Source of the DNA: Schmidtea polychroa
Lineage: Eukaryota
Direction of reading: 5' to 3'
Length of the DNA stretch: 64,000 bases
Assembly (NCBI GenBank): GCA_044892525.1
Contig: CM097888.1
Span: 51,026,001 to 51,090,000, forward strand
The notes under the pieces were generated by a model. That model saw nothing but the letters and a program-made list of their open reading frames with translations, was not told the origin of the DNA and searched no databases. Both the position numbers and the translations under genes were made by a program. Of this stretch, positions 28,892 through 61,739 are shown piece by piece (position 1 is the first letter of the stretch; the number at the start of each line of letters is the position of its first letter).

Positions 28892-29131
28892 ATTGTTATT
28901 AGGAGGTTCATCCTGTAAAACATTAAAATCAGTTTTTGTTTCCATAAATTTTATTTCAATAAATATCAAAATCAAATTATAACTTCTTTAATCTTTCTTA
29001 TTTAAACAAATTTTCTACGAAGATATTTTTAATTAAAATATCTTCTTATTTTGTTTTTTTAAAAATTAATCTAAACTTTAATTTTTAAAATTTTCAATTT
29101 AAAAATTTCTTCATCATAAAACTTCCTCATA

Positions 29132-29142
29132 TCCCCCTTCTT
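29132..29142 (-). promoter_or_regulatory. Polypurine tract
   Basis: AAGAAGGGGGA immediately precedes the 3' LTR. Confidence 0.9.
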
Positions 29143-32100
29143 AAGAAATCTTTAAGTTTTTCCACATTTCTTTCGATCCTTTTTCCATCTTCATTTCTTA
29201 AGATGTATCGTCTGTCATGCACTTTCTTTATCACTTTGTACGGACCTTCATACCTGTCCTGGCCTTTGTGGCGTGTTTCTACTTTTACTAATACTTCTCC
29301 TACATTGAATTTTCTCCTTGTTTGTTCTTCTAGTTCTTCCTTTATCGGTATTTCTTTGGACCCGTACCATTTTTCCTTGCTAATCTTTTTTCCAAAAACT
29401 ATCTCTGCTGGGCTTTTCCCTGTCGTTTTTTGTTTGGTTGCATTTAAAGTGAATTCGACTTCTGGTAATATCTCTGCCCAATCCGTCTTCTTTCTATCCT
29501 GTAAAGTAGCATTTATCAAATCCCGTATTGTCCTGAATTGTCTTTCTATCTGACCGTTTGTTTGTGATGGTATGGACTCGAAAAACATAATTTAATATCT
29601 AGCATCTTTGTGAATTCTCTCATCATTCCTGATTCAAACGCCTTTCCGCAATCAACTCTTATCTCCTTTGGGCATCCAAATCTTAAAATCCACTTTTCTA
29701 AAATCGTTTTCTTTATTGTTTCTTCGCCTTGTTTTGTTATCGCTGTCAAGACTTGATACTTACTATACTGATCTATTATGCTTAATATATACTTCTTACG
29801 TCCTTTTGTTTCTGCCAACGGTCCACATATATCCACGAATATAATTTCGAACATTTCCTTCGAATCTTGCCTTTTTACTTGTTCTTTCGTTGTTATTGTT
29901 AAAGCCTTGGTTTTTTGACAAATCTCACAACTTCGAACAATCTCCTGAATCTTACTCCACAGGGGTTTTCCAACATATCTATCTTTCATATAATCGGCTA
30001 TCTTCTCGACTCCAGCATGACACAATAGTCTATGTATTTCCTTTGTTGTTTCTTGTAACTCATTTTCAGGTATCATCGTTTTCTTTCGTACTTCTTCTAC
30101 AATTCCATGTTGGATGTTGCTTCTTCCCTCTTCTCTGATCGAGTCTAGTAATCTTGTTTTTATCTTTCCTTTCTTAGCTTCTTCGTGGGCCATTTGACAT
30201 TGAACACACGTGTCACATTTAGTTCTCGACACCATGTCTGCATTTTGGTGATTAATACCCTTTCTGTATTCTACTCTTATATCTAAACTGCTCAAATAAT
30301 TGATCCATGTTTGGAATTGTGAAGTAATCGACTTCTTGGTTGTCATCATAAACGTGATTGCCTTGTGGTCTGTCCTGAGCGTGAATCTTCTTTCGTAGAG
30401 ATAGTGCTTAAAATGAATGCAAAAATAATATACCGCCAATAGTTCCTTTCTTGTAATACAATATCCTTTCTCGTGGCTCGTCATCGAGTGTGATCCATAC
30501 GCAATTACTCTTTCCTTTCCATCTTTATCTCTTTGTGAAAGTACTGCTCCAATGGTATCGAAACTAGCGTCGGTATCTAAAATGAACTCCTTTTCAGATC
30601 CGGAAAACATAAGATTGGCGCCGTCGTGAGTGCTAATTTCAATCCCTCAAACACGCTATTCGTTCCTTCACTCCATTCTAATTTTTTGTTACTTGGTCCG
30701 CTACATAATTGTTCTAACATCCTTGCCTTCTTTGCATAATCACTGATGAATCTTCTATAATAATTGCAAATACCTAAAAAGCTTCGGAGTTTCTTTACGC
30801 AATTAGGCTTCCCAAAGTTCTGTATGGCCTGAATTTTAGATGGATCTGTCTGTACTCCTTCCTTGCTGATTATGTGTCCTAAGAATCTGATTTCTTCCTT
30901 TATTATTTGGCATTTTTCTGGATTAATCCTTATGCCTGCTTCCTCAATCGCCTTTAACACTTCTCCGAGTATTGTATAGTGTTTCTCTTTACTGCTGGAA
31001 TAAATCAAGATGTCGTCCAAATACACCATTGCTCCCTTTATTTTGCCTAATACTTTTGTCATCATTTCTTGGAACGTACCGTGGTGCTGCTGCAATTCCA
31101 AACGGCATTCTGTTGAAACAATATTGTCCGTTCTTTGTTGAGAAAGCTGTTTTCTCCTGTGATTCTTCTTCTAGTTCCACTTGGTAATATGCATTACCTA
31201 GATCGATTGAGCTGAAAAAGACGGATCCTCCTAACAAATCTAACATCTCGTCTATGTTTGGCATTGGAAATGCCTGCCTCTCTGTTACCGCGTTCAGCTG
31301 TCTAAAGTCCAAGCATAGTCTAATATCCTTTTTCTCTTTTTTCCATACACATATTAGCGGTGTATTCCATGGAGAGTTACATTTCCGTATAATTCCATTT
31401 TCGTACAAATTTTGTATTGCTTCTTCAATCTTTGATTCCAAATTTAGTGGCTGGCGATATGATTTTATGTTTATCGGCTCACCTCTTGTAACTATCTTGT
31501 GTTTTACCAAATGTGTGCGACCCACATCCCATTTATCTGCCATAAACACGTTTCCACTGTTTGTTATAATTTCCTTTAATTTGCTATCTTCATTGATCTT
31601 TAACTGTTCCAACGCTCGTATCAATCGTTCTTCATCCTTTATTTTTCTGCCAAATTTTGCTTCAATGTTACAAATATAGTTCTTGTCTTTTTCACTAGCC
31701 TCGATATCTTTAATTTTTAACAGTCTAAATCCAAATGTTTCTTGTAATTCGATTCCTCCAATCACGTCTGGTGTCACTTTCTCCGCCACAATGAATATAA
31801 CTTCCTTCGAAACATTTCCAATGGTTACTTGCACCTTCGTTTTTCATATTGTCTCGATCGTACTCTCGTTTGCGCAACGTAACTTATCGTCACTTTTCGT
31901 CAATTGTTGTCCTCGTAGCTTGTTGAAACAGTTCACACTCATTACATTGATTCTTGCCCCAGTGTCTAATAAACAGTCGAAATTTTCCCCATTCATCCTT
32001 ACTGTTATACTAGGCCTTCCTTGCATTCTGTTATACAAAATTTCAACAACCTGCTCCGTTTCAATGGTTCCAATTCTTTCCACTTCCTCTTCAAACATTT

Positions 32101-32190
32101 CTCTCTTTAGGAACCTGTATACTTTCTCGCTTACCCTTCCAACATTCTCCCACTTTTCTGCCCCTTGAGGATATCCCATCAAATTTTCTG

Positions 32191-33237
32191 TTAGAATATG
32201 GCTCCAACCAACTCCTCTACTGGTGAAGCCCTGTTGTTTGGGTACGTCTTCCTAAAATTATCTTCATTTGTCTCTACACACGATTCCCTTTCTTCTTCTT
32301 CCTCGATACCATTTATCCGACTGTATCTGTTTCCCGTGAATCTTTGTCTCTCCGTCGCTCTCCCGTACCTCATCTTTGTATAACACTCCTCGGATCTATG
32401 ACCATTTCTGCTACATCTTTCACAACGTATTTCCTGACACAATCTTCTTAAATGACCTTCTTTCCCACACCCAAAACATCTTGGAGCTTTTTTATCTGGA
32501 CAGTTTCTACTTATATGTCCGCTTCTATGACATGTCCAGCATTCTATTTTACCTTTTATTGGACAATCAATTTTCGTGTGTCCTATTTTGTGGCATAACC
32601 AGCATTCTGGCATTTCTCTTCGGATACTTTCTTCTCTCTGTTCTTTCTTCTTGTATTGTACTCTTCCCTGTGGTTCCTGATAGACCACTCTGGCGTAACT
32701 TTTCATACTGTTTATCTGCTCTCTTTGCTTGTCTACTTTGTCCATCAGAGTTAGTGTTTCCTTTATTTCTTCTGTGCTTTTTATCTTCCGTAGTATCACT
32801 TCTTTCTCAACTTCTTTATTCTCCGCACATACTATTAACATCCTTGCTGTTAATTTCTCTTTGGTAAATTCTTTATTTTCGAACAACCTATCAACAAGGT
32901 CCTCCACCTTTTTAAAATACGTTTCTATTTCTTCACCCTTCCGCTTGTAATTCAACAAGTTTTGTAGATCCTTTAAAACATCTCTTTCACGATCGAATGA
33001 CAATCGCAACCTAGCCTGGAATCCTTCGGCTTTTTTCAGTGTTTTGGCGTACACTTCCAGGAGATCCTCATCAATCATGCAAGATGTTAATCTTTCCGGG
33101 TCTTTCTTCTGCGTGATTCCCTTGGCGTCGAAATAAATTTCGCATCTTTTAATGAACTTTTCCAAATCGTCCCCTTGGCAGAATACCTTTGGTAGCAATC
33201 TTTCGGTGATTGCGTCCGTGTTTACCGCTGCCACCAT
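32191..33237 (-). CDS. gag: Gag with four CCHC zinc knuckles (in-frame upstream ATG also present inside the LTR)
   Basis: CWLCHKIGHTKIDC, CWTCHRSGHISRNC, CFGCGKEGHLRRLC, CERCSRNGHRSEEC; uninterrupted ORF. Confidence 0.9.
   Translation of the reverse strand: MVAAVNTDAITERLLPKVFCQGDDLEKFIKRCEIYFDAKGITQKKDPERLTSCMIDEDLLEVYAKTLKKAEGFQARLRLSFDRERDVLKDLQNLLNYKRKGEEIETYFKKVEDLVDRLFENKEFTKEKLTARMLIVCAENKEVEKEVILRKIKSTEEIKETLTLMDKVDKQREQINSMKSYARVVYQEPQGRVQYKKKEQREESIRREMPECWLCHKIGHTKIDCPIKGKIECWTCHRSGHISRNCPDKKAPRCFGCGKEGHLRRLCQEIRCERCSRNGHRSEECYTKMRYGRATERQRFTGNRYSRINGIEEEEERESCVETNEDNFRKTYPNNRASPVEELVGAIF
32200..32242 (-). promoter_or_regulatory. Putative -1 ribosomal frameshift signal (gag to pol)
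   Basis: Heptamer C CCA AAC in the gag frame (32236-32242), a 5-nt spacer, then stem-loop GGCUUCACCA...UGGUUGGAGCC (32200-32230). The -1 frame is open from here into the protease. Confidence 0.7.
33224..33236 (-). promoter_or_regulatory. Primer-binding site, probably for tRNA-Leu
   Basis: TGGTGGCAGCGGT directly abuts the 5' LTR and is complementary to the ...ACCGCUGCCACCA end of metazoan tRNA-Leu(AAG/TAG) as recalled. Confidence 0.75.
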
Positions 33238-33745
33238 ATTAGGAGGTTCATCCTGTAAAACATTAAAATCAGTTTTTGTTTCCATAAATTTTATTTCAAT
33301 AAATATCAAAATCAAATTATAACTTCTTTAATCTTTCTTATTTAAACAAATTTTCTACGAAGATATTTTTAATTAAAATATCTTCTTATTTTGTTTTTTT
33401 AAAAATTAATCTAAACTTTAATTTTTAAAATTTTCAATTTAAAAATTTCTTCATCATAAAACTTCATAATTGTAATATACGAAACTTCAGCTCATCAAAC
33501 AGGTCACTATATGGGATTAGTTATGGTAATATCACCAATTTTCTTATTTCTCGTATGCTCGTATGCCATCAAGATTGGAAGTTACATTAATGCAAATACC
33601 AGATTCACTTTATACCAAGATGTGGCATTCAAGAAATATATTATATCTATTAGTTAATATTAGTTTCAAATTTTTATAATCATCTTTTTTCAGCTCACTT
33701 TCCAGAGCCTCATTGACTAAATCGAATCTCCTTTTGAGTGACATA

Positions 33746-35350: not shown

Positions 35351-36277
35351 CGAACCATTCTCTCAATGTAACGTAAATGTTTTTTATAAAATAGATGAAT
35401 GTTTTTCTTAAGTTCATTTATCTCTAATTTTTACAGTAAGAAATACAACTCAACAGTAGGTAAATATTAGCCCTCTGTAGCATGACCATCCGGTGTACCC
35501 TTCTCCTGATGCAGAGGGATAAAATCTACCTACTCTCATCAATTCATTTGATGAAATACTCCCCATACCGAATCTTCACATCTGATCTGCATCTAACAAT
35601 TTATGAGTAATTTATGGGGTTGCCTTTCTTTCTAATATATTTTCAAGGCCTTGCAAATCAGTGTCATTAATTACTTAATAAACCTTTATTTAATTATCAG
35701 TTTAATGGTTTTGATTATTCTTTTTATTAAGGTTGTTGCGTGCTTTGGGTCTGTCCATGCTATTTATGCTGGTTGTATAACCAATATGGAGAATGTTGCT
35801 GTACCCCATGTGTGGTTCCATGTGCTTCTATGGCATTAAGAATTCAACATCGGAATAGAAATAAAATTCAAGTAATTAATTTTTGATATTTTTATTAGTT
35901 ATTCTAATAATACAATAAATTTAATTAAATTTTAACAGTTGCCCTTTCTGTACAGAATTGAAATTTAAGAAAAACAGAAAAAAAACAAACCTTTTTTTGT
36001 ATTTCGTTTTTTTATTTCATTTCTTTTCACCATTGATTTAATATTTTCAATTTTATTTTCAAAGTTTGCAATCAATGTTTTGCACTTTTATTTAGAAAAA
36101 ATCAATAATGCACTTTCATTTTGATAAAGTTGTCTGGGAACAAAAGGCACCTCTGACTATAGTCAAAAATCTCATTTTAACAGTTTGCACTTAAAAATCC
36201 AAACAAACACATGTAATATATAAAATATTCAAATGAACAGGATCTACACTCGAGAGATCGGTATTTTCGGTGTTTCC

Positions 36278-38265: not shown

Positions 38266-38511
38266 TTAATAGGGGACCTAAAAGGAATTCGAACATAGGC
38301 CTTCTATCAGCAGTCCGCGAACCCGCTCAAGTACTTGCCGATTATAGTGTACAAAGGTACGTTTGATATTTGCAAGTACTCACCCAAATGCTCACCTCAC
38401 AGTTCCAACGTTGATCACTCAACGGGTATCGAGCGTTACATGATTTTTGTATTCTCGGTTACACTGGAAGGAGCACGAAAATGTAAAATGTGGATTACCT
38501 GCAACCCACCA
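38266..38511 (+). other. Structured dispersed repeat, copy 1 (most degenerate)
   Basis: Homologous to 38810-39035(-) and 61408-61652(+); hairpins 38330-38380 and 38409-38424; ends AACCCACCA. Confidence 0.75.
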
Positions 38512-38809
38512 AAAAAATAATAATTATGTCGTTATTATTTTTCTTGTAGTTATTAACAATATAAAATCTACATTACATGAAAAAAATATATTAACTTTTA
38601 CATTTTTAAATGCTATTAAATCTTCACATCGTCTTTCGATTTGTGGTTTTCTCAATAATTCTTGAATCTCGTACTAAAGACGGAGATATTGAAAATATCA
38701 CTTAAAAGTTTATTGCATCTAGTTGATTTAGCTGACAGTGAAAGACAGAAAAACACAAAAGCTGACGGGACTCGATTAAAGGTTTACATTATTAATACGG
38801 TCAATATTA

Positions 38810-39035
38810 TGGTGGGTTACAGGTAGTCAGCGTAACCCAGAATACAATGATGATCCTACCAATTGATACCCGTTGAGTGATCATCGTTGGTAATGTATTA
38901 ACTGGGTGGTACTAGCAAAAGGTGAGCGCGTTATCGCACTATAATTGTCGGGTACTCTTTGAGTCCACGGACTATCAATAGAAGATATACGTCCGATTTC
39001 ACTCTGGTCCCTTAACTCTATTGTTTCCCCAAATT
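38810..39035 (-). other. Structured dispersed repeat, copy 2
   Basis: Reverse complement aligns with copy 3 over ~230 nt; ends GGGTTAC-loop-GTAACCC-A-CCA. Confidence 0.8.
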
Positions 39036-39392
39036 TCATAACTCTTCCATTCAATCTCATCAAACTAACCTGCATCATACTAACGTCAAAGTACTACAAT
39101 TTTATTTACAAATTCATTACATCATTCATTTATTGTTTACCAAGCAGTTTGAGTTGTGACGATCCTGATTCATTCAGCCAACCGAAGTCGTTTTAACCGC
39201 TCCCTTCCGTCTCGCCCTAGCCGTTTGCGCTTGGTCTTGATGGTTTTGGCCGTGTGGATTTCGGTCAGCTCCGTTTTGATTATTCTTTTTATTAAGTTTG
39301 TTGCGTGTTTTTTTTCGCTCCATGCTATTTAGGCTACATGTATAGCCAATATGGAGAATGTTGCTGTACCACATGTGTAGTTCCATGTGCTT

Positions 39393-39746
39393 CTATGGCA
39401 TTAAGAATTCAACTATCGTTTTCTGGTTCAGGCGTGTTTCCATTGCTTGCATTTTTATTTTAAGCGCGCGGATTTCGGTTTTGTCCTGAGCGCTTTGAAG
39501 TTGCAATTGCTCCATTTGCTTCATACGCTTATACATGACTTCGGGACGAAACCAAGTCCGTCCCATCTCTCGGAATCGCTCTTTGAACTTAGCAATACTG
39601 GCTTGAAGACTCTCGACTTGTCGTTGGGCCTGTTCTTTGTCTTTTCTGAGGTTCTCGAATAGCTTGTACACTAAATTATAAACATGATTAATTGAGTTTC
39701 TTACATACTCTTCTTCTTCTCCGCCTGCGAGCATCATCAAACTCAA
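39393..39746 (-). CDS. Coiled-coil ORF of unknown origin, upstream of structured repeat copy 2
   Basis: 117-aa open frame with relatively high GC and a heptad-like E/K/Q pattern; no family recognised. Confidence 0.35.
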   Translation of the reverse strand: MSLMMLAGGEEEEYVRNSINHVYNLVYKLFENLRKDKEQAQRQVESLQASIAKFKERFREMGRTWFRPEVMYKRMKQMEQLQLQSAQDKTEIRALKIKMQAMETRLNQKTIVEFLMP

Positions 39747-40434
39747 GTTTCTACAGATATAGCATGAATATTAAGCCCTTGTGCGTATTCTAAATCCCTG
39801 TATTCAAGTTCTAATTTAAAGAAAAGAAAGTTAATATGAAGTTTTATTACAATTTTATTTATTGCTAAAGGAAATATTACAAATTACGAGATCACTATAT
39901 TATAATTAAGAATGTGAATCACAAATTATTCATCATACATACAGACAAGAGAGTAAATTCACTAATTATCATTATTATTGTTGTCATCACAAAATCACGA
40001 GTTTGCTTTTAACTTCGTGGAGTCGTCTTTCGGGGTCTGCCGCGTCTTTATTATGATGATAAAAGATTTGTTTTATCTGATGGTATTAGAACACTTCCGT
40101 TTGGAAATTACTTGGTTCCATTTATAACCAACTTACGCAAATTTAATAAGAAATATAGAACCAACATGACAGATGTTGAAATGATTAAAGTTAACCTCGG
40201 ATGTCGTCATGATGAAATTTGACGATATAAAATGTCAACTATAAACTTAGATACTTCAATGATTATCAAAATGATAAACACCTTTGATAAACTTATGAAT
40301 AGAATAAATAAACTAGAAAAGATAATTAAATTTTCTCTTGTGCTTCCAATCTCCTCTTTATATTTTTATGTTTTACCTCGGTGGAATTAGTTGTCAATTT
40401 AATATTATATTTCATATCCATTAAATATTCATAA

Positions 40435-40800
40435 TTAACAATTTAACCATTTCTCTCGATCATCTTTTTTCGAATATCCTCGGGTTATTTGATTTGCACT
40501 CTTCAACTTGATAATTTGATCTTTTATCTCTTGAATTATTTGATTGGATTTTAAAATGTCATCATTCGTCAAGACTCCATCTTCCATGGCTTTTAAATGA
40601 AATAAAAATAATTTTGCTATTCCTACATCTATTGATGAACATACTTCACGATATAAACTCTTCTCTTTTGCAGTGTATGATACAAACACAACTTCAGTCA
40701 AGAATAAATCTCCTGCTGAAATACTCCCAAGAATTATTGGTACAAGTGTTAAAACTGGTAAAGTTGCAGGTAATATAATTGTTACTGTTGTTGCAAAACC
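40435..40800 (-). pseudogene. Polinton-type membrane protein fragment
   Basis: Hydrophobic TIILPATFPVLTLVPIILGSISAG followed by KAMEDGVLTNDDI; 5' end disrupted by an 81-bp tandem duplication (40788-40946). Confidence 0.45.
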
Positions 40801-41191
40801 TAGCGATCTTTAAACAAGTATCAGCTCTATTCCATCTACTTTTAATTTTTTTATAATGTTTTAGTATATTGTTGCAAAACCTAGCGATCTTTAAACAAGT
40901 ATCAGCTCTATTCCATCTACTTTTAATTTTTTTATAATGTTTTAGTAAATCTTCTAAATAAAGTTTTCCAGATTTGAATTCTTTTACTTGTTTACAGGGA
41001 GAGGTGCTTTTGAATTACAAGGGACTTGTGATTCAAAAGGTGTTGTGTATGATATCCTGATGATCTCAATTCTGGGTAAATTTTATCTCAATTCAAAATT
41101 TCATTTTGATTCAAGATTTTATCTTCTTGGACCTCCATTTTATATATTTTAATTTCCGTTTCAAAGAATCAAGATTTATTAAAAACAAGTT

Positions 41192-41554
41192 TTAAAACAA
41201 GACTTTACTGTGTGGTATCAACACTCGTATATCACATGGCCTTGGTGTGAGCACATCTTTATACAACTCGGACAACAATTTACGAACCTCTTTAGCATCA
41301 ATCTTTTTATCATAAAATATTAAATCTATATAATGTACTAGTGAAATAGCAAAATTAATATTCTTACTTTTGACTTTATATGTTTTATGCGATTCAGTAT
41401 TATCATGCCAATACCCATGTGACAAATCATAACTAGTCATTATAACATCATCCTTTTTAAGCTTAATATTATTATCACATTTCACGAACCATTTCATTGT
41501 TTGATCATCATCAGTAAATAAAAAGAAATATGGATCAATAATTTTTAAAATCAT
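41192..41554 (-). CDS. Hypothetical Polinton protein
   Basis: 120-aa ORF inside the element; family not recognised. Confidence 0.4.
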   Translation of the reverse strand: MILKIIDPYFFLFTDDDQTMKWFVKCDNNIKLKKDDVIMTSYDLSHGYWHDNTESHKTYKVKSKNINFAISLVHYIDLIFYDKKIDAKEVRKLLSELYKDVLTPRPCDIRVLIPHSKVLF

Positions 41555-41827
41555 AAAACAAGACCATTCTTTACTATTTGTTGTTATTGAAATTGGCTCT
41601 GTTAAATATTTATATGTATTAGGTAATGATGCATGATTCTCTTGTAATTCAGCAGCTCTTTTTCTAATGATGTGTGTAGGGTGAGACTCTAAATTTGAAA
41701 GTCTTTTATTAGATGATCTATTTATCTCATTTATTGTGTTATATATTGCATTAAATTTAGTATTCGTAATTTGTTTATCTGTAGAATTTAATATGGAAGC
41801 ATTTAACTTTACAACTTGTTCAGTTAA

Positions 41828-42223
41828 CTAACTTTGTAACTTAATAAATTTATCATTAAATCGCTGTTCAATATTATTAAGCTTGGATTCCATCAAAGAA
41901 TTAATATTATTAAGCTTGGATTCCATCAAAGAATTAACTTTGGATTCTATCAAGGCATTAACCGTGGTTCCCATTGAATCAAATTTTGTTGTTAATAAAC
42001 TTTCAATTCTTGTTGTTAAATCAGTATATTTTTTATTAACTGCATCACCTTCATTAATTGACCAAGATAATTCTTTTATCTTGTGTCCATTCATGTCTAA
42101 ATCACTCTTCATAGAATCACCCTTTTCATTAATATATTTATTTTCTGTAATGGATATAATATCTTCGGTATCTAAACCAGCTTTAATTGTCCTGGCGATA
42201 TTGCAAGGAGTATAAGAACTCAT
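41828..42223 (-). CDS. Tail-fibre-like repeat protein
   Basis: GDSMKSDLDMNGHKIKEL...DAVNKKY motif; internal 30-bp repeat LMESKLNNI occurs twice. Confidence 0.6.
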   Translation of the reverse strand: MSSYTPCNIARTIKAGLDTEDIISITENKYINEKGDSMKSDLDMNGHKIKELSWSINEGDAVNKKYTDLTTRIESLLTTKFDSMGTTVNALIESKVNSLMESKLNNINSLMESKLNNIEQRFNDKFIKLQS

Positions 42224-42243
42224 TTTATAGTAATAATTTTCAT

Positions 42244-42498
42244 TTACACTTGTTTCAAATGTAAATACATGGAAATCTCTTCACCATTAAAATTAATCAA
42301 TTCACCATCCCCACCAACAATTTTAAAATTAATATTATATAAATATTTTCTACACAAGGGTAAATAATTTGGAGGATTCATCCTTTTAGAATTTAAATTT
42401 ATAGGGTTATCAAAATATATAGTAAAATCAGACTTGGTAGAAATAAGTGATAAAGTTATGGAATATTTTGAAGACATTATATTCTCCATTTTTTTCAA
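42244..42498 (-). pseudogene. Minor capsid (penton) with its middle deleted
   Basis: N-terminal ISTKSDFTIYFDNPINL is joined directly to C-terminal YLPL...INFKIVGGDGELINFNGEEISMYLHLK. Confidence 0.7.
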
Positions 42499-42588
42499 AC
42501 TTTACTCTATTTTTACTAATAAAAAATTATAAAAGTTTTTATTGTAATAAAATTATTTTAACAAAGTTTCCAGATTATTTTAGATTTC

Positions 42589-43019
42589 TTAGATTATACT
42601 TGTTAACTCTTGTTTTATGAGCGTTGTATCAACAAGATTTAATTTATACAAAACATATAAACACAAAACTCCACATATTTTAGTGTTGTCAGGTTGAAGC
42701 TGTAGAGTATTATAAATATATTCTTGTTTTGTTGGTGTTGTATCAAAATCAAGAAAACCTTCTCCCAAATATTCTTCAACTTCTTTTGTAGGTTTAATTC
42801 CATGTGAATCGAAATAAAGAACTCTATTATAAACTCCAACCCAATGAGATTCTTTTTCATTAGAGTTTTGATAATTGATTATTATATTATTTTTCTTAGT
42901 TTTTCCAATTTTGTGCAATTCATCATTCATTAATAATTTGCATAGTCTTTTAAATCAAAATTTGTTTTTGTATCAACTCCAAATGTTTTTAAAAAATTCA
43001 ATATTGAATACTCGCTCAT
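42589..43019 (-). pseudogene. Adenain-like cysteine protease
   Basis: TNFDLKDYA at the N-terminus; catalytic SHWV, YFDSHG and QLQPDNTKICGVLCLY; frameshift near 42930. Confidence 0.88.
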
Positions 43020-43021
43020 TT

Positions 43022-43902
43022 TTAAAGTGTATATTTATTAAATTTATTAAATTTATTTATTATATTTATTAAATTTATTTGTGGAATTAATTTATGTTTT
43101 AATAATTTTTTAGATATCTTTAAAATATCACCATTCAAGTTATTATGACCTGCTTTCTTTGCTGCTAATAATTTTCTTAGTTGGATAAAAAGATTAATAA
43201 AATTTGTTTTGTTAATAAAAGTTCCTTTTGCCTTCTTTAACAGTATACCCCATTTCATTTTGATTTAAATAACCCTTTAAACCCTGTATATAATTTGATT
43301 TTGAACTACCTCCTACTAATTTTATTAAATCTAAATATTTTTTAATTTCATTTTTATCATCTGATGAATGTCCTCTAATTAATTTATCCAAATCTTTTGT
43401 GTATTCTATATTTAAACGTTGATTGTTGAAACTATTTTCAGAATGAATATATAGTTCACCATTATTATTTTCATACAACACAAATTTTTTATTAGTAATT
43501 GTTATAATTTGAAATCCTTTATCATTCATAGAAAAAATAGGATTAATTGTTTTAGTCAATTTTCCATTAATTCTTGTATCTACCTTGTATGGTTTTATAT
43601 TTATCCCCAAATCTTCAGGTTCCAAATCCCAAGATTCTAAATCTCTATATTCTAAATCTTTAGGTGATTCTAATTCTTTGGGTTTTAAATATCTGGGTTC
43701 TAATTCTTTAGGTTTTAATTCTTCTCCCTCTAAACAAGTTTAGAGGGAGAGCTTTCAAAGCATCAAGAGTTGGTTGTTGTTGTTGTGTCATTAATTCATT
43801 TAAAATTATAGATTCACTATGTTGATCTAAATCTTTTTTGTTATACTTGTCTTGTTCAACATGTAATTTTTTTAACAATGCCAATCTTTCTTCATTAACC
43901 AT
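43022..43902 (-). CDS. Hypothetical Polinton ORFs (43708-43902, 43212-~43730, 43022-43258)
   Basis: Open frames inside the element, with LEP/KEL peptide repeats at 43610-43725; no family recognised. Confidence 0.45.
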
Positions 43903-44071
43903 TTTTATACCATTTTATGGTATACCATTTTTTATACCATTTTATGGTACATGTTCCTTTATTAGTAAAGAAACTTTACTTATAAAGTTCTTTCCAAGGT
44001 TTCAAATATAAACCTTTACCATCTTTTGATTTACAAATACAACCATTTTTCAAAGACTTGCATATTTTTTT

Positions 44072-44512
44072 TTAACTATCTTTATCTTTTGTAGATAATT
44101 CAGATGATGAAATTTGATTTTTGAGAAAATCATTTAAACCTCTACTTTTGTAAGGATCAAGGTATAAACCTGTTCCAAGCTTGGAACCTTTTATTAAATC
44201 AATTTCATTTTGTAATTTTTGTTTTTCTAATTCAGTTTTTTGAGCTTCTTTAGATTTTTGAACTGTAGTTGCAATCCCTCCAGCAATTCCAGCAGCACCA
44301 GATAAGCCTGCAATGATTATAGGTATTAAAGCAGCCAAAGGTAAAATACCACCTTATCTAATTTTCTCTTGAACTTTTTCCTTGACATGTTTTCCAACAA
44401 AATATTTCTTGCCATCAATTACTACTGATTTACTTTTGTTTGAATTGATTAATTCTTTCACAGATTCTTCATTTGAATTAGTTAATTTAAATGGAGATTC
44501 TTCAGTCGTCAT
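44072..44512 (-). pseudogene. Conserved Polinton/adintovirus virion-core-type protein with an amphipathic Gly/Ala segment
   Basis: GGILPLAALIPIIIAGLSGAAGIAGGIAT...GTGLYLDPYK; premature TAA just before the GG. Confidence 0.65.
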
Positions 44513-44527
44513 TTTTTTTAAAATAAA

Positions 44528-45308
44528 ATGGATATTTTAAATCAAAATAAAATTATGAATCAAAATAATATTTGGTATCCAATTTTAACGCGATATAAAA
44601 GTAAATTTAATAATAAAATTTTTCCAGATAATTTTAGATTATTAATTGTTGGATCTTCAGGATGTGGAAAGAATGTACTTCTTTTGAAAATGTTACTTGA
44701 AGATGGTTTTTTAGATTATAATAATTTAATATTTTATTCTACAACTATAAATCAACTTGTGAAATGTGGATTTGAAAATTAATTAACTAAAAAAGGAATC
44801 ATTGATATTTTTAAAAATCAACATAGAGTCCTGATGAAGTACATCAACCATGTGATATGGTTGATTGGTATAGGGAAGAGATTTTAGAATCAAACATTCC
44901 TAATAAAAATGATTATATTAGTGATGAATCAATACAAATTTTATTCTTCAACAAACCTGAAGATGTATTACATTGTGATTTTCTTTCCAAAAATAAGAAG
45001 AATCTAGTTATATTTGATGATGTTGTAAATATGAAAAATCAAGAAATTCAGAAAAGTTGTAATGTGATAATAATAATTGTAATGTGATTTACAATTCTCA
45101 AACTTATTATGCCTTGGATAAAAATTCAATTAGAAACAACTCCAATTGTTTCATCTTTTTTAAATTAGATAATCGTGACAAGAATATGATTTATAGTGAT
45201 TTATTTTCAAATGTTGAACGTGACAAGAATAGGTTTGATATGATTGTTGACAATCATTGGAAAAAAAATATAAATATATTTATTTGGATAGAGAAAAGGA
45301 TGAGTTAA
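44528..45308 (+). pseudogene. A32/FtsK-like packaging ATPase (frameshifted)
   Basis: Walker A LIVGSSGCGK, Walker B LVIFDD, and IRNNSNCFIFFK. Confidence 0.88.
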
Positions 45309-45357
45309 AGAAAACCTTGTTTTAATAAAACCCTGTAAATATTAAAAACTTGTTTTG

Positions 45358-46200
45358 TTAAAAACTTGATTTCTGTAATTCATTATTATAAAATCTACCC
45401 AATATTTCTTCATTATTTATATCGATGATACTATATGTAATTGGAACTGTATGATGTATTTTATTTATAATAAAAATTTCATTTGTCCATTTCGCTGTGA
45501 ATCCTTTTTCAAATTTATTTTTATATTTAAATATTCTTACTCTATCACCAATTTTAAGTTTAGATTGAGAGAATTTCTCTTGATCTAAACTTGGTTTTAC
45601 AAACTCTTGTTTTAGAGCCAAAACTTATTTTGGATCTAAAACGGGGTTTGTGGAAGCATTTAAAGGTGTTTCTTTAATAGAGCTATGTACATCATTATTA
45701 TTTTCATTTACCATCTTTTGCAATAATTCATTGTTCCATTTTTGTTTTCCAATAGCAGTAAAATATTTCCACATTTTATTTTTTAACGTTCTATTTAATC
45801 TTTCAACTACGACTGCTTTTCCTTCATTTTCTGTGTAATATAATTTAATATCATTTTCTTGCAAAGATTTTGTAAAAACTTTGTTATAAAATTCTGTTCC
45901 TTTATCACACCATAAATATTTTGGAATTCTTTGATATTCTTCAAATATATTTTCAAATGCTTCTGTAATAGAATATCCTGTTTTATTTTCTAAACATCTT
46001 GCAAAAGCAAATCTTGTATATAAATTTATTACAGTTAAAATTATTTTATATTTTTCGGGGTCTGATGATTTGGTTGGCATAAAGACTAAATCAGCAGAGC
46101 AAGTATGATCTTTTTCATAAACTTGAACTTTTAGATATTTTTTATTTTTTCTAAATTCATGGTGTAATTCTTCAGCATATTTTATTAGTGATTCTGTTAG
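45358..46200 (-). pseudogene. Retroviral-like (rve) integrase of Polinton type
   Basis: YAEELHHEFRK...SADLVFM, LWCDKGTEFYN, KAVVVERLNRTLK and IGDRVRI...FEKGFTAKWTNEIF. Confidence 0.9.
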
Positions 46201-46202
46201 GA

Positions 46203-46740
46203 TTAATAAACTTTTATTAGTAAAACTTGTTTTACTAATAAAAAAGTCAGTCTTGGATGCATTCTCGAGGTGTTTTCAGTGTCTGCTTGTTCAATAATCT
46301 TTTTATTAGCAACATCTTTTGCCATCCTTGATAAACTAGCACCTATAGCGATCATGGGAGTCGGATTGTGTCCTGCATCCATGAAAATTTTACCCTTCAT
46401 TGCTAATTTAACTAGAGCTCTTTGAATCTTTTCTTGAGTTGATGGATTTTGTATATTATTTAAATCATGAATTAAATTAACATCAGCAACATGTCTATCT
46501 CTAAGAGTTTTTGAATTGTAAGCAATGTCATGTTTTAAAGCAGCTCTGTCAATTCTATTTATTGGTTCCTCTCCTTGTTTAGGATTGTCATTTTCATCAA
46601 GTCTAATATCTAATCGTGTTCCAGGTCCAGTATAGTTGTGTTTAAATAAATGTCTTTCACCTGGGTATTTTTCAGTAGTAAAGGGTTTCAATAATGTTGA
46701 TGTTAATTTTGAAGATTGTAAATCACCACCAATTTGTTTT
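46203..46740 (-). pseudogene. Parvovirus-type phospholipase A2 (PLA2X-like) domain, probably originally fused to the integrase
   Basis: NYTGPGTRL...PINRIDRAALKHDIAY...RHVAD. Confidence 0.85.
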
Positions 46741-46883
46741 TCTCAAAAGCAAATCTACTTAAAGGATCAAGATCTAACCATGGAATATTTTTTGATGATG
46801 AAATTATTTCACCTTCAAAATTATCTGATAGAATATTATTAATATTATTTAATTGAGTTAAATTCTCTCTCTCTAAAACAAGT

Positions 46884-46988
46884 TTAGATCGAGAGAGGTG
46901 TTATTTTATTTTTAAGATGACTGGCTTTATGGTGTGTTGTAACATCACAACAACAAGTTTCACATCTCCAACAACGTTTAGTAGTCAT
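46884..46988 (-). CDS. 34-aa Cys/His-rich micro-ORF (zinc-finger-like)
   Basis: MTTKRCWRCETCCCDVTTHHKASHLKNKITPLSI*; A-rich start context, and its stop overlaps a hairpin. Confidence 0.5.
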   Translation of the reverse strand: MTTKRCWRCETCCCDVTTHHKASHLKNKITPLSI

Positions 46989-47057
46989 TTTTAAAAAGTT
47001 AAAATTTAATTATAATAATTTTAGTTTTATTACTAAAACAAGTTTTAGTAATAAAAG

Positions 47058-48294
47058 TTAATCTCCTCTAACATTCTCAATTATTGAAATCTTTCTACCA
47101 TATAACTTCATTTCTAATGTATATATTTTTGCTTTAAAATTAGAATCCTTTGTCAACATTATTTATAGCTAATCTATCATCTTGATCTGAAACATTTATA
47201 CAGAATATAGAATATAAATTTTTAAAATCTTCTAAACTTAATTGTGGTTTTATTTTGAAGTCTTGGCATGTTTGAATATAATTTTCATATGGGAATATAT
47301 TTTCATTGTTTTGTGGATTCCATTCTATTTACTGGATAATAAGAATTATTCAATTGAATTTGAATTGATTTTATATTATCATCTCCAATCTTTTGAATAA
47401 ACAAGTTATATTTTTGAAAGGATGGATTTAATTCTTTGAATCCAATTAAAATATATCTTGGACGATCTGCTAAATTTATAGAGTATGATGAACCTTTTCT
47501 CATGTCAAATACACTACAAATTCTATTTAAATAATTAACATTTATAGACTTGTTGGAGTTTAATCTTTCAAGGAGTTTAATTTCAGCATGCGGCCTTAAT
47601 GTCCATTCGGGTATATGTATTTCAATTGTTGTTAATTTTAATTTGGCTTTTGTATCTGCAGCTAAATAGAATAATACTTTATCATCTTCTATTCTATTAC
47701 AAAGTAATTTTATAAAAACATTATGAAGTATACGATTATAGTTTTGAAGGAAACCAAATAAATATTTTAATTCGAAATAACCCTCAAATTTTTTAGACTT
47801 GTAAAGTTTAACACGTTTATAATAACCATAATTTGTATCTAAACCATCTTTATCTGTATCACCTTTGTTAACATCGGGGATCAAACCTGTTTTATAATCA
47901 AAACCAGTCAAAACAAAATTTAACATTGAATTGATATATTTTCAATTTCTGATGATCCTAATTTTAATCTCATGCTGTTGAATAAATTTGGAAAGAAATT
48001 ATTTTCTAGGGTAATAACTTTATTTGGTTCAATCTCTAATTCAATTTTGTAATATAATTTTTCATTACAAATATCTATAAGGTTTGATGTTTGAAGAGAT
48101 TGAAAATCTATATCACCTGAACGATTTAAATTTGAAATGAAACCAGAAGTTGGACAAATTTTAAGTACATCATTTTTCTTGATTTCATGAATAAACTGTT
48201 TATCATAATCAAGATTTAATTTATTTTTTTCTGAAATCTCGAGATTTATATTGTTCATTTTTATAATAAAAATTTCAATTTTTATATTTTTCAA
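47058..48294 (-). pseudogene. Polinton major capsid protein (frameshifted)
   Basis: ENNFFPNLFNSMRLKLGSSEIE, LKYLFGFLQNYNRIL and a C-terminal piece PQLSLEDFKNLYSIFCINVSDQ; final stop at 47058-47060. Confidence 0.85.
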
Positions 48295-48379
48295 TTTTTA
48301 TTTTTTTATATTTTTACTATTCATAATGCGACCCTCTAATTTTTATAAATTTTAGATGTATGTAGTATTTACAATATTT

Positions 48380-51619: not shown

Positions 51620-52622
51620 ATGGATATCAAATCTTCTGTTGATTTTGAAACTAGACCACATGCTTTAATTGTTATAGGCATGGCTGGAAGTGGTAAAACT
51701 TCATTTGTCAATGCTTTGAAAACGTATTTAAGTCAAAATGATTTACCAGCTTATACTATTAATATGGATCCAGCTGTTCATTTTTTGCCTTATGATCCTA
51801 ACATTGGTATATTAAATTTTAAATGGGTATTATAAATTTAATTGATATTTAGATATCCGTGATGTAATTAATTATAAAGAAGTTATGAAAGAGTACAACT
51901 TAGGTCCTAATGGTGGTATTTTAACGTCTTTAAATCTTTTCTCAACAAAAATGAATGACGTTGTTCAGTTAATTAACAATAACTCAGGTGCAACTAATCA
52001 TTGTATCATTGATACACCCGGTCAAATAGAAGTATTTAAATGGTCAGCTTCTGGTAAAATAATTACTGAAACTCTGTCATCATCCTTCCCAACAACAATT
52101 GTTTATGTAATCGATAGTACACGTTCAACTAATCCACGGACATTTATTTCCAATATGGCTTATGCTTCAGCGGTAGCAACTGAATATGATTTACCATTTG
52201 TAATGGTCATGAACAAGACTGACATAATTGACTGCAAATATCTTGAGGATTGGATGGCTGACGTGACGAAATTTATCGACGATATGGAAGAACAAGATCT
52301 CGGTTACATGAAGACAATGACGAGGCAGATGGCATTTGTGTTGGAGAAGTTTTATTCTGTAATTCCCAAATGCGGAGTCTCATCGCAAACTGGCCAAGGA
52401 ATGGCTGAATTTGTGGAACTCTTAAAGGCTGCTAGAGAACAGTTTCTCACTGAATATCTTCATGAAATTGTACAGGCTAAAAATTCTGATGTCGAGGGGC
52501 CGGCGGAAAATGGATTTATCGATCTGTTGACTGATAGGATGAAGAAATCAGAAGAGGAACAAATGAAAACAGAAAGCGAGAATGAGGAGACAATTTCAGA
52601 AAATGGAAATGAAACAGATTAA
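51620..52622 (+). CDS. GPN1: GPN-loop GTPase 1, 318 aa; exons 51620-51806 and 51853-52622
   Basis: GMAGSGKT, NMDPAV, DIRD across a 46-nt intron, LGPNGGILTSLNLF, DTPGQIEVFKWSASG and NKTD. Confidence 0.95.
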
Positions 52623-52713
52623 TATAATATTCATTCTTTGATGTTTCTTATTTTAAATCCGTCTCTACACCTAACTAACATTATCTAATCTAAAAAAAAT
52701 CAATAAATATATA

Positions 52714-55312
52714 CACCAACCGGCATTTGATTATCATCAAATGGCCATTGATTTGCATATTTATTAATATAAATAATAAATTTGTGTGTGTCATAGTCAG
52801 AAGGGACATTCAATTAGCTAGGTGACATTGAATTAGCTCTTACACTATAGAAAGATAGAAAAAATTGCTGTTGGAAGAAAAATAAATACATACAAACACG
52901 GTTCACAAATTTTCTATAATATAAAATACACACTATAGGACATTGATTTATCATAAGGACATTCAATAAGCTAAAAATTTTCATTTTTAAATCAAATTAT
53001 TATCAAAATGTTCGAAGATATTTCAGAAGCTTCTTCAGAATCAACAATTCCATTTCAAGAAATTCATAGAAATGTGTAAGTTTTTCATTAAACTTTAATT
53101 ATTTTTTAAAAATCGATATAGAATTACCATTAAAGATAAAGAAATAATCATTAAATCCATGAAGATGGCCATGATTATTATGAATTAGGCCGTATTCTTG
53201 GAATTAAGCGGAATACAATAACCAGCATTATTGTGAAATATAAGAAGACTGGAATTTTATCCGCAGGAACAAGAGGAGGCAATCGACCAACAATTATTGA
53301 ACTATGTCGAAAGAAATTGTTATTCGACATTAAATCAAATGAGATGTTTTTATCTACAAATCACAATGTAGAAATTTCCACAAAATCAATATCCAGGTAC
53401 CTGAAAAATCAATTTTTAACCTTCAAAATGATCAGGCCTTGTGTGGAAGAAAGAAATTCAGATAGAATATTGGATATTCGGCAGACATATGTTACACGTC
53501 TGCTTGAAGAAGGTTGGGGGAGCAGTAAATTTATTTATATAGATGAATGCTCTTTCAATACATGGATAAACAAGAGATTCGGAAGATCTCGAGTAGGCAC
53601 TCGAATTTACAGCATCGTGCCGACAAATCGAGGTCCCAATATTTCATTAGTTTTGGCAATATCCAAAGATGGGCCCATCCATTCACAAATCATCATTGGC
53701 TCTTTTAGAAAGGAATCATACCAGTCATTTATAACAGAATTGACTGAGAAACTGAATGGATCTGGATTCAGTTTGATACACGATAATGCATCCATCCACA
53801 ATAATGTATTATCTTTGAACGATCACATAGAAAAGTTGCCTCCATATAGTCCATTTTTGAACCCCATCGAAAGTGTGTTCAGCAAGATTAAAAATGGGGT
53901 AAGGACTAAAGTTTCCTCGGTTAATGGATTTTCCAGGATGAGTTTCAATGACAGATTTACCGCAATATCCCAAGCAGTTATCGAGGAACTTAGCAAACCA
54001 GATTATAGTAATTTGAAAAATTACTATAATAATATTAAAAGGTTCTTCCCTAAATGCTTGAAGAAGCAGGATATTTTTGGTGAATTCTGAAAAATGTAAT
54101 GTATATTATAATAAATAATTAAATATCTTACTTCTTTATTCATTATTTTAAAAAAATCTTAAAATTAACTAAAATCCAAAACAAAGCTTATTTGATAATT
54201 AATTTGATAATTATGATAATTAAATGCGCTTTGGTGTATTATAGGAACACACAAACTTGTGTAGAAATTTAATGCTGCGAAATGCTGTAACATATTTATT
54301 AATCTAAAAAGTGAGAGAAAATAATTAAGCATACAAGCACAGCACACAAATGAAAAATACATACAAAATTAAGTAAAGTGCTTTTTACACATAAGCGCAT
54401 TTAATTATCATAAATGAGACATTCATTTAGCTTTGTCAAATAAGCTTTGTTTTGGATTTTAGTTAATTTTAAGATTTTTTTAAAAATAATGAATAAAGAA
54501 GTAAGATATTTATTTATTTATTATAATATACATTAAATTTTTCATAGTTTTATTAAAATATCAAGAATTTAGGGAAGAATCTTTAATATGATTATTAATA
54601 TGATTTTTGAAATTATTATGATCTGGTTTTCGAAGTTCCTCGTTAACTGCTTGGAATATTGCAGTAAATCATTCATTGAAGGTAAATCTGTCTGGAAAAT
54701 CCATCAACCGAAGAAACTTTAGTCCTTACCCCATTTTTAATTTTGCTCAACACTTTCGATGGGGTTCAAAAATGGATTATATGGCAATTTTTCTATTTGA
54801 ATAGTCAATGAAGATATATTATTGTAAATGGATTAGCTCATCTTTGAAAATTGAGACCTCGATTTGTTGGAATATTGTTATAAATTCTATTGTCTACTCG
54901 TGATCTACCGAAGCTCTTGTTCGTCCATCTATTGAAGAGCATTCATCAATGTATTTCTTGAAATGAAATAGACGATTCTGATGAAGTTTCTGACATATTC
55001 TTGTATATTTTTTTATAATTAATTAATTTTAAATGGAAAATTTTTCGCTAATTGAATGTCCGCATGATAAATCAATGTCCTATAGTGTGTATTTTTTATT
55101 ATAGAACCGTGTTTGTATGTATTTATTTATTTTTTTTCCAACAGCGATTTTTTCTATCTTTCTATAGTGTAAGAGCTAATTGAATGTCACCAAGCTAATT
55201 CAATGGCCCTTCTGGCTATGACACACACACATTTATTATAGGTAAGTTAATATTTATATTATTAAATATGCAAATCAATGGCCATTTGATGATAATCAAA
55301 TGCCGGTTGGTG
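52714..55312. mobile_element. Foldback IS630/Tc1-type element made of two inverted left halves
   Basis: TA-flanked termini CACCAACCGGCATTTG. 52714-54231 is mirrored, with deletions, by 54393-55312 around a ~160-bp spacer. Confidence 0.9.
53008..54090 (+). pseudogene. IS630/Tc1-superfamily transposase with a 46-nt intron (53076-53121) and one frameshift near 53157
   Basis: HTH YELGRILGIKRNTITSII; catalytic YIDE, HDNASIH and LPPYSPFLNPIE. Confidence 0.88.
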
Positions 55313-56559
55313 TATGCGAAATTAACATTGATTAAAATATAATTAAGATATCAATATTTTCAAATTATTTAAAAAGTTATGTACAAAAAAACTTTTGAAT
55401 CAGATTCTGACTGCTCTACCTTGAGCTTTAGGGAAAAAGAAGAAAATACATCGTAAGATTTAATTATAAAATAATTTAGAATATAAAATTTCTTTAGATT
55501 TACAGATATTCAAGAAGGTCCTTCGACATCTTTGAATTTGCAAGAAAAAAATCGCAAATCGTAAATTTTAATAAATTATTTTAACAAATTAATATTTTCA
55601 TAGAATTACAGAAATAGACTTAGAATAGACTTAGAAATTGAATTACAAAAATAAATTCGAAAGAAGATTACAAAAACTTAAAAAATATTTTATCCATTCT
55701 TTACTAAATGTCTTTAAAAAATAAATGTTTGGTGATTACTTTACTTATTTATAATTATAAAAATATCTAACTTACATTTTTACGAAATAAATCCAAATAA
55801 AATACCATAAAATTCCTAAAAAACACCTGAAATTTAATTATCAATGTTATTATAAATGCTTACTAACAGTAATATTTAAGAACTTGAATAATGATCTCAT
55901 AATTATTTAAAATCAAAATTCAAGTCCTAAAAATTACTTCAATTCAAAAACTTACCTTAAAACGATTTTTGAAAAATTGAAAAAATGAAATTAAGTTAAC
56001 ATTGTCATATAATAGGTGTATATAGTATATAGTATATAGGTGTATATAGTATTGATTATAAATATCGCTTATTGTTGTCCATCCATTTTCAGCCAATCAA
56101 AATCTTGCAAAGAAATCTCACTAAATTATTGGTCTCTATTAATTATTTATTAAATTTTTTTGTTGAAAGATGTTTTATTTACTAAAATGAATCAATGAGT
56201 TATCCAGACTTATTTCAATATTTCGGTAAGCTATTGTGCACTTACTGTAAAATTGGAGAATAAATACAGAATTATCCTATAAAAATACTAAAATTTCACT
56301 GATTCTCATACGGTAACACTCATTTATAGAGTTAAACTTGTGTTTCGGCTAATAAAGTTTTTATTGATGGTGACCGATCATTTGGTCAAAGTTAATTTCG
56401 TGTTGATTAATTGGTCGAAAAAATAATTTAATTTGCATTAAAAATACGTACAAAAAAAGTACAAAAGTAATTCATTCAATACGCGATGTTATGAGCGATG
56501 CTTTTCAGAAACTGCTTGATATTGTTCGAATCATATCTATCCACTAATAGCTTTATTCT

Positions 56560-59599: not shown

Positions 59600-60043
59600 A
59601 TGAAAATACGAATTACAAAATACAAAAGTATAAATTTTAGATTATAAACTTATAAATTATAAGTTAAGCAATTATAACTTATAAAATATGAATGTATAAA
59701 TTTCAAAATATGAAATTATAATTATAAATTACAAGATTGTAAATCCCTAAATTGAAAAATTTAAAATTATAAATCGAAAATTATCAAAGTACAAATTATA
59801 AAACATAAATTTATAATTCTAAAACATGGGATTATAAAATTATAGTTATCATAATCTGGATCATTTCCCTTGTTATTACTATTAACAGTATCAACATTAT
59901 CATTACTATTAGTATTATTATTCTTATTCTTATTATTATTATATTATTATTATTATTATTATCATTATTATGAATATCATAATTAGCATTATTATTATTA
60001 TCATCATTATCAGTACCATTATAAAAATTTATTATTATTCTTG

Positions 60044-60079
<36 letters not shown>

Positions 60080-60240
60080 CCATTATCATTACCATTATTA
60101 AAATTTATTATTATTCTTATTATTATTACTATCATTGCTATTATTAATATTAATATTATTATTATCATTATTATTATTATTATTATTAGTATCGTTACTT
60201 CATTGTTATTATTATTGGTATTATTATTATTACAGTTAAC
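59600..60240. repeat. Low-complexity AT tract and degenerate (ATT)n array
   Basis: Read directly; it produces spurious Ile/Asn-rich ORFs. Confidence 0.9.
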
Positions 60241-60764
60241 TACAAAAAAAATCGATATCCCAATCCGATATCGATCACCTGGAAATTTAGAAATTAGCAA
60301 ATTAAATAAATTACTTGTATGCAGAGCAAACCACTCATAACGAGCACAACCGAAGGAAAGGTAAGCAGACGAAGAGCTTAGTTCGTTGCTAGCACCTGTC
60401 GCCCCAGCGTGCCAGAATTTAGTGGCCTAAAAATGATGATCCAAAAACTTTACATTTTATTCAAGTATAAACTAAAATTTATAAATAGTAATTAAAATTA
60501 CCACTTAGTGGTAAACAAATTCTGGAATGTAAATGATTAATTTAAACAAACGGATTTTCGACGAAATTCCTTTTTAATCTAGTTGATAATGAATGTGATT
60601 TTAATCTATTGTTCTTAGGCTTATAAGTGTTAGCTGGAAAATAAAGAATTTTCTTTTTCGTTAACGTTGAATTTTTAAAAAGTGGAGAAAAGGGATTAAC
60701 AAAATCCCGTGTTTAACTTCGTAACATAATTTGTATAAAGTGACCTGATTGTTACTTTGCAGAA

Positions 60765-61130: not shown

Positions 61131-61407
61131 CTCGTCCTCAATTCTAACTCGCGATAGACATGAACTTTACTCTGAACAAATCTCCTCTGTAATGAATTAA
61201 TAAGATTTGATTTGATGATGAACTTTACTTTGAATGAGTTTCTTCTTTAATAAATTATCGTAAAAAAAATACGAACAGTCATCTGGACTATACGCATTGA
61301 ATTTTTGGTTGTTTATTGTTATGGTGTAAATACAATTTAGTTAACAAGTGTTGTATGAGGTGTATTGTCCACAAATATCGAGTGATTGAGAATTAGCGAG
61401 TTGAGAT

Positions 61408-61652: not shown

Positions 61653-61739
61653 ACTATATCCGGCAAGTTAAAAGGAATTTTATGAAAAACTGAGATTGTG
61701 GAGTCTAAAAGTCATCAAATCAAAATTTGGATCCTTTAG

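Follow-up and report, generated by a model that had tools for sequence, protein, structure and literature searches.

The window, by which we mean the whole 64,000-nucleotide stretch of Schmidtea polychroa DNA that was analysed, holds three segments that were confirmed at the places given in the preliminary description and could be aligned with each other over about 245 nt. Each of the three belongs to an LTR.

61409 to 61652, plus strand: copy 3, a conserved structured block, likely distal U5, marked out by identity between subfamilies and by covariation
38810 to 40049, minus strand: copy 2, the 3' part of an older LTR subfamily, 74-80% identical to the TG..CA-bounded copy L162
38268 to 38511, plus strand: copy 1, the decayed block of a third, old LTR subfamily, 78% identical to L168

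All three end in the shared terminus AACCCACCA. Copies 1 and 2 are decayed fragments. Copy 2 has its block at 38810-39033 and no left LTR end was found for it; it carries a 29-nt deletion in the last stem, and the "very different loops" first reported for that stem were largely a product of these 29 deleted columns. Copy 1 retains almost no upstream LTR sequence, its upstream region being common only to two duplicates, and its terminal stem is broken. Where CGGAC was said to be kept in all copies, copy 1 has CGAAC, and the CGTTGA-N4-TCAACG hairpin was present in copy 3 (plus strand) and mismatched in copy 2 (minus strand), with CGATGA opposite TCAACG. A 145-bp piece at 35708-35852, 90% like 39273-39413, is a second scrap of the copy-2 LTR, and a Maverick/Polinton-like remnant at about 40400-48300 (double jelly-roll, integrase and phospholipase A2-like matches) adjoins the truncated copy-2 end. 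Elsewhere in the window we observed a Tc1/mariner-type transposase (DDE_3, 53155-54090) within a fold-back with nested inverted arms at 52711-55315, a broken non-LTR-like element on the minus strand at 13006-15785 with an Ulp1 protease match and RT-like frames seen by eye, a GPN-type GTPase frame (ATP_bind_1) on the plus strand at 51846-52622 and, by eye, porin-like exons on the minus strand at 7715-8711.

What had been called a three-copy element is far more numerous: the 15-nt end motif had 2,168 exact matches genome-wide versus 0 for a reversed control, and each window copy drew 2,230-2,681 candidates in the 781-Mb genome, 40 of which were scored. A start of homology at the block edge was not seen, as 54 of 57 distinct copies share upstream sequence with another copy. 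The relatives of copy 3 share 4.2-5.6 kb of upstream sequence, back to a common start, TGTTGGG. The block forms the final ~245 nt of an LTR of 4.2-5.6 kb (TGTTGGG...CCCACCA) and is not a free-standing RNA. Around copy 3 the following features were assigned.

57808 to 61652, plus strand: solo LTR of 3,845 bp from a Burro-type Ty3/Gypsy element, 95.5% and 98.7% identical to L081 in two pieces
57804 to 57807, plus strand: left target site duplication (TSD) ACTA, with the right copy at 61653-61656
57808 to 57814, plus strand: left short inverted repeat and integrase end TGTTGGG, the common start in 16/16 copies shown
61646 to 61652, plus strand: right short inverted repeat and integrase end CCCACCA, containing the "CCA", flush with the TSDs

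The solo LTR lacks ~540 bp at 61266/61268 relative to the full-length copy L081. Its right end mirrors its left end, and the TG..CA ends fit the description of LTRs given in passages of PMC3601003. Among 14 copies with both ends, two of them longer through insertions, an exact 4-bp TSD lay flush with TG and CA in 13 and a 5-bp TSD in none; both whole elements likewise had TSDs (ACAG/ACAG and ATAG/ATAG). The CCA had been read as a tRNA-like 3' terminus, whereas its CA is the integrase end of the LTR, flush with these 4-bp duplications. L162, a relative of copy 2, also starts with TGTTGGG (flanks CATA/TATA), as does L168, a relative of copy 1 (flanks TATG/TATG); most other old copies that were fetched had no recognisable left end within 8 kb. 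We rejected the block as a mobile unit of its own or a SINE, since it has no TSDs of its own (five-mers, 2 of 57 versus 3.05 expected). The left LTR end also starts with a hairpin (TTGGGCTAGAA...TTCTAGACCCAA, window 57810-57838). About 400 PBS sites and 397 matches to the pattern for the start of the 3' LTR compare with more than 2,000 ends, and solo LTRs dominate the genomic copies. Tandem elements were also seen (G000 C1:39.42-39.47 Mb and C1:224.48-224.55 Mb, with periods of 15.8 kb and ~36 kb), and L046 has two blocks head to tail.

Homology had been thought to stop at CCA, whereas 410 genomic sites continue from AACCCACCA to TGGGGGCTC and thereby into a primer-binding site (PBS), versus 0 for the control. 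The pattern allowed 4-12 nt between the two motifs and the gap was 8 nt in all 100 of the matches listed. In 81 PBS-linked rows (78 distinct sites, with 8 further loci left out as they had no block start) the spacer was always 8 nt and read TACAAATT in 73, and the next 18 nt were TGGGGGCTCAGCCGGGAT in 75. This PBS is an exact complement, 18/18, of the 3' end of the host tRNA-Pro(TGG) including its CCA. It lies on the same strand and starts 8 nt past the CCA, so TGGTGGGTTAC is not the opposite-strand PBS that had been considered. No PBS-linked copy of the copy-2 subtype was found, the 7 sites recovered all having the GATTACCTG end, and the junction pattern had 0 matches in viral contigs. Side observations on the tRNA were that in 6 of the 81 rows the PBS differs by one change, perhaps fitting a second tRNA-Pro gene type, that complementarity extends to 23 nt in 17 rows, and that tRNA-Pro(TGG) genes form a long tandem array, repeating every 475 bp, from 130.90 Mb of G000 C1 onwards (L150, L151).

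A complete element measured 31,893 bp (31.9 kb) and was bounded by LTRs 98% alike with ACAG on both sides. Pfam matches followed the order Gag, CCHC, MATH, mononegavirus-type fusion glycoprotein, PR, RT, RH and IN, and after IN came a TRAF zinc finger, MATH, BIR and RING; a second long copy additionally had ankyrin repeats. PR-RT-RH-IN lay in this order in one 1,187-aa frame. An RT linked to other copies was therefore found, and the proposal that the structured element belongs to an RT-based mobile family was borne out. Both long copies read were broken by stops and frameshifts, and the Burro polyprotein of the reference is a single ~4,900-aa frame. BCL2-like, SUMO-like, dUTPase-like and Smc domains had no Pfam match at E<=0.01 in 16 frames; the reference used profile-profile searches for some of these. 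The distance from PBS to 3' LTR was 25-26 kb in 36 of 79 cases and 10-12 kb in 22, the 79 being those with a listed 3' LTR start within 60 kb among the 100 PBS sites listed. Elements of a 10-11 kb class (L249-L254) were located in G000 as follows.

C1:19489100-19506599: element of the 10-11 kb class
C1:75301700-75313699: element of the 10-11 kb class
C1:70790300-70800299: element of the 10-11 kb class

These short elements keep the same block, LTR ends, PBS and 3' junction as the long ones. All three have a Gag-like frame, open over 1,570 and 1,571 aa in two of them, and nothing similar to the long element's pol part was found in any. With a Gag-like frame and without pol similarity the short class looks non-autonomous, and from its coding content it is likely a dependent partner with capsid production of its own.

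The preliminary description had supposed an undescribed family, whereas the architecture is that of the described Burro elements. For Burro/GYPSM1 of planarians, section 7 of PMC6431247 gives an internal region of up to 25 kb, a total above 30 kb and thousands of copies, as well as MATH/TRAF, BIR, RING and ankyrin domains and an env-like domain between gag and PR. Like Burro/GYPSM1 of dugesiid planarians, our element has an internal region of ~25 kb, a total above 30 kb and thousands of copies, Gag with CCHC knuckles, MATH/TRAF, BIR, RING, ankyrin and PR-RT-RH-IN, and a fusion glycoprotein between gag and protease. Judged by this described architecture, the element is a Burro-type giant Ty3/Gypsy LTR retrotransposon. 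Knock-down of PIWI increases the RNA of BURRO1 in planarians, according to passages of PMC8532177. Section 7 of PMC6431247, on Burro, is silent on LTR RNA structure, PBS, polypurine tract (PPT), LTR-encoded ORFs and a gag-only 10-11 kb class. Our literature searches turned up no account of Burro LTR structure, PBS or PPT; the 2018 naming paper may already give the PBS and PPT.

The LTR itself has coding potential, with two short frames seen in the window.

60765 to 61130, plus strand: ORF A, 121 aa, dN/dS 0.14-0.34 in 10/10 pairs
39396 to 39770, minus strand: remnant of ORF B, predicted coiled coil, ~50% identical to ORF B of the copy-3 family

ORF B had a dN/dS of 0.06-0.20 in the 7 measurable pairs of 10. 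By these ratios the LTR encodes two short predicted proteins that are under purifying selection (dN/dS 0.06-0.34; window, L081, L093 and L095). Neither had a Pfam family or a usable Atlas match; the C-terminal RGRPRK of ORF A is presumably an AT-hook-like motif.

The block folds into three helices and a terminal stem, given here for copy 3.

61444 to 61473, plus strand: helix 1, a covarying 3-bp inner stem with a 7-nt loop TTCTA(T/A)C
61484 to 61534, plus strand: helix 2 (GAGTACTCG/CGAGTACTC) with an inner variable hairpin; 8/17 pairs change on both sides
61539 to 61579, plus strand: helix 3 (CTTGGTAC/GTACCAAG) with the CGTTGA-N4-TCAACG hairpin; 7/14 pairs change on both sides
61594 to 61652, plus strand: terminal stem GGGTTAC/GTAACCC with a GCTG-GNAA-CAGC hairpin; conservation only

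Across 38 copies, picked from clusters at 94-96% identity with mis-cut and near-duplicate rows excluded, the 50-pair structure was paired in 94.7% of cells and 18 pairs were changed on both sides (0/500 shuffles), the structure being drawn from the same alignments it was tested on, which favours it in the slide control. In the 22 PBS-linked copies 99.2% of cells pair. As related copies inflate counts of pair changes, events were also counted on a tree, which ignores recombination. Both partners had changed on 18 branches, 17 of which keep the pair, in 13 pairs, compared to 3.7 +/- 1.8 and, rate-matched, 4.9 +/- 2.2 under two partner-permuting nulls (0/5000). The helices and compensatory changes noted earlier from three copies were thus upheld above chance in the larger alignment. 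In helix 1 the covariation was GC:19/AU:18 and CG:25/UA:11, with the loop kept in 29/38 rows. The self-complementary arms of helix 2 were rejected as a universal dimer signal (5' arm in 22/38 rows, 3' arm in 17/38).

Folded singly against shuffles, copy 3 was significant with a z of -3.2, and copies 1 and 2, with z of -1.6 and -1.5, were not; the mean z was -3.4 for the sense strand and -2.4 for the antisense strand. G-U cells exceeded A-C cells by 50 vs 7 (PBS-linked copies) and 103 vs 39, and the small hairpin loop was GAAA, GTAA or GCAA (GNRA-type) in 20/22 rows. Hairpins that act as single-stranded or cruciform DNA, in strong-stop cDNA or in binding of integrase or another protein, would agree with the antisense strand folding below shuffles and with the hairpin found just inside TG/CA at both LTR ends, but the G-U excess of the sense strand and the GNRA-type loop make this DNA role improbable. 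The same two features indicate that the sense RNA is the folding strand. By sequence comparison the fold is real, with covarying helices on the sense strand.

Covariation support was confined to helices 1-3. No double-sided change was seen in the terminal stem or where it extends into the spacer, and RNAalifold alone missed this stem, the outer pair of which was kept in 36/38 rows. In 5' LTRs a pairing across the LTR border is possible between TTGTAT (61594-61599) and ATACAA. In the modelled fold the CCA can thereby come to lie within a longer stem that abuts the PBS at its foot; 5/22 rows lose one border pair and the same five gain a neighbouring pair.

In plant RNA viruses and the Mauriceville retroplasmid the 3' tRNA-like structures have a stem followed by NCCA. 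The block resembles them in having a true 7-bp stem and then A-CCA, and the 7-nt loop of helix 1 is, as we take it, reminiscent of a T-loop. On this ground the block could conceivably give rise to a tRNA-like RNA of its own as well, with CCA at its end, for instance as processed LTR read-through. We consider such a product highly unlikely. Unlike the viral and retroplasmid ends, the CCA is a DNA end fixed by TSDs and is internal in the likely transcript, in that transcripts from a 5' LTR would continue past it to the PBS and gag and it would lie inside the longer stem, and the CA is explained by integrase. The block lacks a T arm and a pseudoknotted acceptor, no T, D or anticodon arm lies inside the terminal stem, and ARAGORN made no tRNA call in the window or the block. 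Rfam made no call in the window either and, searched at gathering thresholds and at E<=10, had nothing in the block (five weak matches, the best at E 0.18, were all at chance level), and there were no block-only insertions with their own TSD.

Poly(A) signals placed the block within the LTR.

61329 to 61334, plus strand: AATACA, likely a variant poly(A) signal, 101 nt upstream of the block
39101 to 39106, minus strand: AATAAA, 95 nt before the copy-2 block

In 27 of 39 upstream types, many of which are related, AATAAA (20) or a variant (7) starts 91-101 nt before the GGGACC of the block, with G/T-rich sequence downstream of AATAAA. The other 50-nt bins had AATAAA in 1-4 types, except for an adjacent bin with 9. 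As the conserved LTR motifs, passages of PMC3601003 name short inverted repeats, AATAAA and a GT-rich stretch downstream of it, with U5 following. Since a poly(A) signal precedes it at a fixed position, the block is most likely distal U5; judged by motif position, it would most likely belong to the 5' end of the genomic RNA and be missing from the 3' end. Contigs of three presumed-RNA runs covered the block and internal region and little upstream sequence, though such contigs cannot show transcript starts or ends and the upstream sequence differs between subfamilies.

The block was 91-100% identical between subfamilies, and upstream 35-nt bins were mostly 55-85% alike. If transcription instead started near GGGAAAAC (61411), the block would be R or R-U5. 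Co-packaged RNAs would then exchange it whole during the first strand transfer, and this would account for the nearly identical blocks of different subfamilies. In 6/6 comparisons identity did jump at precisely the block start, being 60-70% before it and 91-100% after it; 11 of the 28 pairs with a block at least 95% identical have upstream sequence below 75%, and the most distant of the compared copies differ in ORF B at 59-71% of synonymous sites. However, this model predicts that upstream sequence correlates more closely with the post-PBS leader than with the block, and the reverse was observed (rho 0.74 vs 0.42); in addition, AATAAA would sit 75-95 nt from the cleavage site. An HTLV-like looping between AATAAA and the block was rejected, since this stretch had no folding signal (mean z 0.09, 24 types). 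Overall we regard an R or R-U5 block as unlikely.

We consider it very probable that the block is the right LTR end of a giant Burro-type Ty3/Gypsy element, likely a folded U5 leader beside the tRNA-Pro PBS. With the poly(A) end of the RNA upstream of the block, the genomic RNA would carry the block only close to its 5' end. tRNA-Pro would anneal 8 nt beyond the CA, and spacer and block would be the first sequence copied by RT, as minus-strand strong-stop DNA; two strand transfers would put the block at the end of both LTRs, integrase would join the CA ends, and LTR-LTR recombination would leave most genomic copies as solo LTRs. By analogy the helices may prepare the RNA for loading of the primer and would probably also serve packaging or dimer formation. 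A role of the helices in loading or packaging would account for autonomous 25-kb and gag-only 10-11-kb elements keeping the same block, and the terminal CCCACCA would be kept because integrase needs it. Passages of PMC11381356 describe structured 5' ends with primer, dimer and packaging signals as general (Ty1, Ty3, HIV-1). As in Ty1, Ty3 and retroviral leaders, in so far as passages of PMC3601003 and PMC11381356 describe them, conserved helices lie just upstream of the PBS, and the LTR end can pair with adjacent internal sequence (U5 stems, U5-IR loop). Unlike those leaders, the block has another sequence and fold, no Rfam match and an 8-nt gap from CA to PBS, and the element has no PPT.

The invariant 8-nt gap between CA and PBS is unusual. 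Priming from this PBS would give cDNA 8 bp beyond the CA, yet insertions end at the CA. End trimming is usually of 2 nt, and a PPT is usual for Ty3/Gypsy though not superfamily-defining. Passages of PMC8487063 state that Ty1 needs no end trimming and that retroviruses and Ty3 do, and for fly elements part of PMC2790888 gives PBS offsets of 0-5 bp (median 2) within that tool's own limits. Purine-rich plus-strand primers are the rule according to passages of PMC3185511 and PMC5371799. In the 40 nt before the 3' LTR no PPT was found, the longest purine run being 3 nt in 28/29 junctions and 5 in one. An ordinary Gypsy on the minus strand of the window (28897-33470; 234-bp LTRs, PBS flush with the LTR) has a normal PPT and served as a control, with an 11-nt purine run, AAGAAGGGGGA. 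In the giant elements the PPT position is occupied by TTTTATGGGCCCCCGAGTGTTTTA, which is complementary to the PBS, and the two junctions mirror each other (CA-TACAAA and CA-TAAAAC). A conserved hairpin, AAATTGCG-GGT-CGCAATTT, followed by the PBS-complementary stretch, was observed just before the 3' LTR in L219-L248.

Across the internal region TTTTATGGGCCCCCGAGTGTTTTA was the best partner of spacer plus PBS in 3/4 elements, at -23.8 kcal/mol compared to -14.6 to -17.5 for the next best; in the fourth, a copy without one C, the 3' site ranked fifth. This pairing stays a lead, because a G run favours any C run in an AT-rich element, and there was no covariation present to test it. Direct minus-strand priming by tRNA-Pro at the 3' site was rejected as weak: the last base of the tRNA is mismatched there, and the best duplex found reached -16.8 kcal/mol, compared to -48.2 kcal/mol for the PBS. 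As a tentative model, which we hold to be unlikely, the PPT would be replaced by a mirror image of the PBS: TGGGCCCCCGAG would pair with the PBS and close a 25-kb RNA ring, TGGGCCCCCGAG or the recruited tRNA-Pro would prime the plus strand, and the cDNA would gain symmetrical extensions of ~8 nt (CA-TACAAATT, CA-TAAAACAC) that are trimmed before integration. Trimming of ~8 nt would be far above the usual 0-3 nt.

Our literature searches found no report of PPT-less LTR elements, nor an earlier description of the leader fold and the unusual junctions, the Burro naming paper lying outside this comparison. The block is the LTR end of a described family and not a new RNA class. What the analysis contributes is a leader-RNA map, supported by covariation, for the largest LTR retrotransposons known, together with two junction features outside the standard scheme of reverse transcription, the 8-nt gap and the PBS-complementary sequence in place of a PPT. 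If these junction features hold, plus-strand priming and end processing in this family would differ from those of Ty1, Ty3 and retroviruses.
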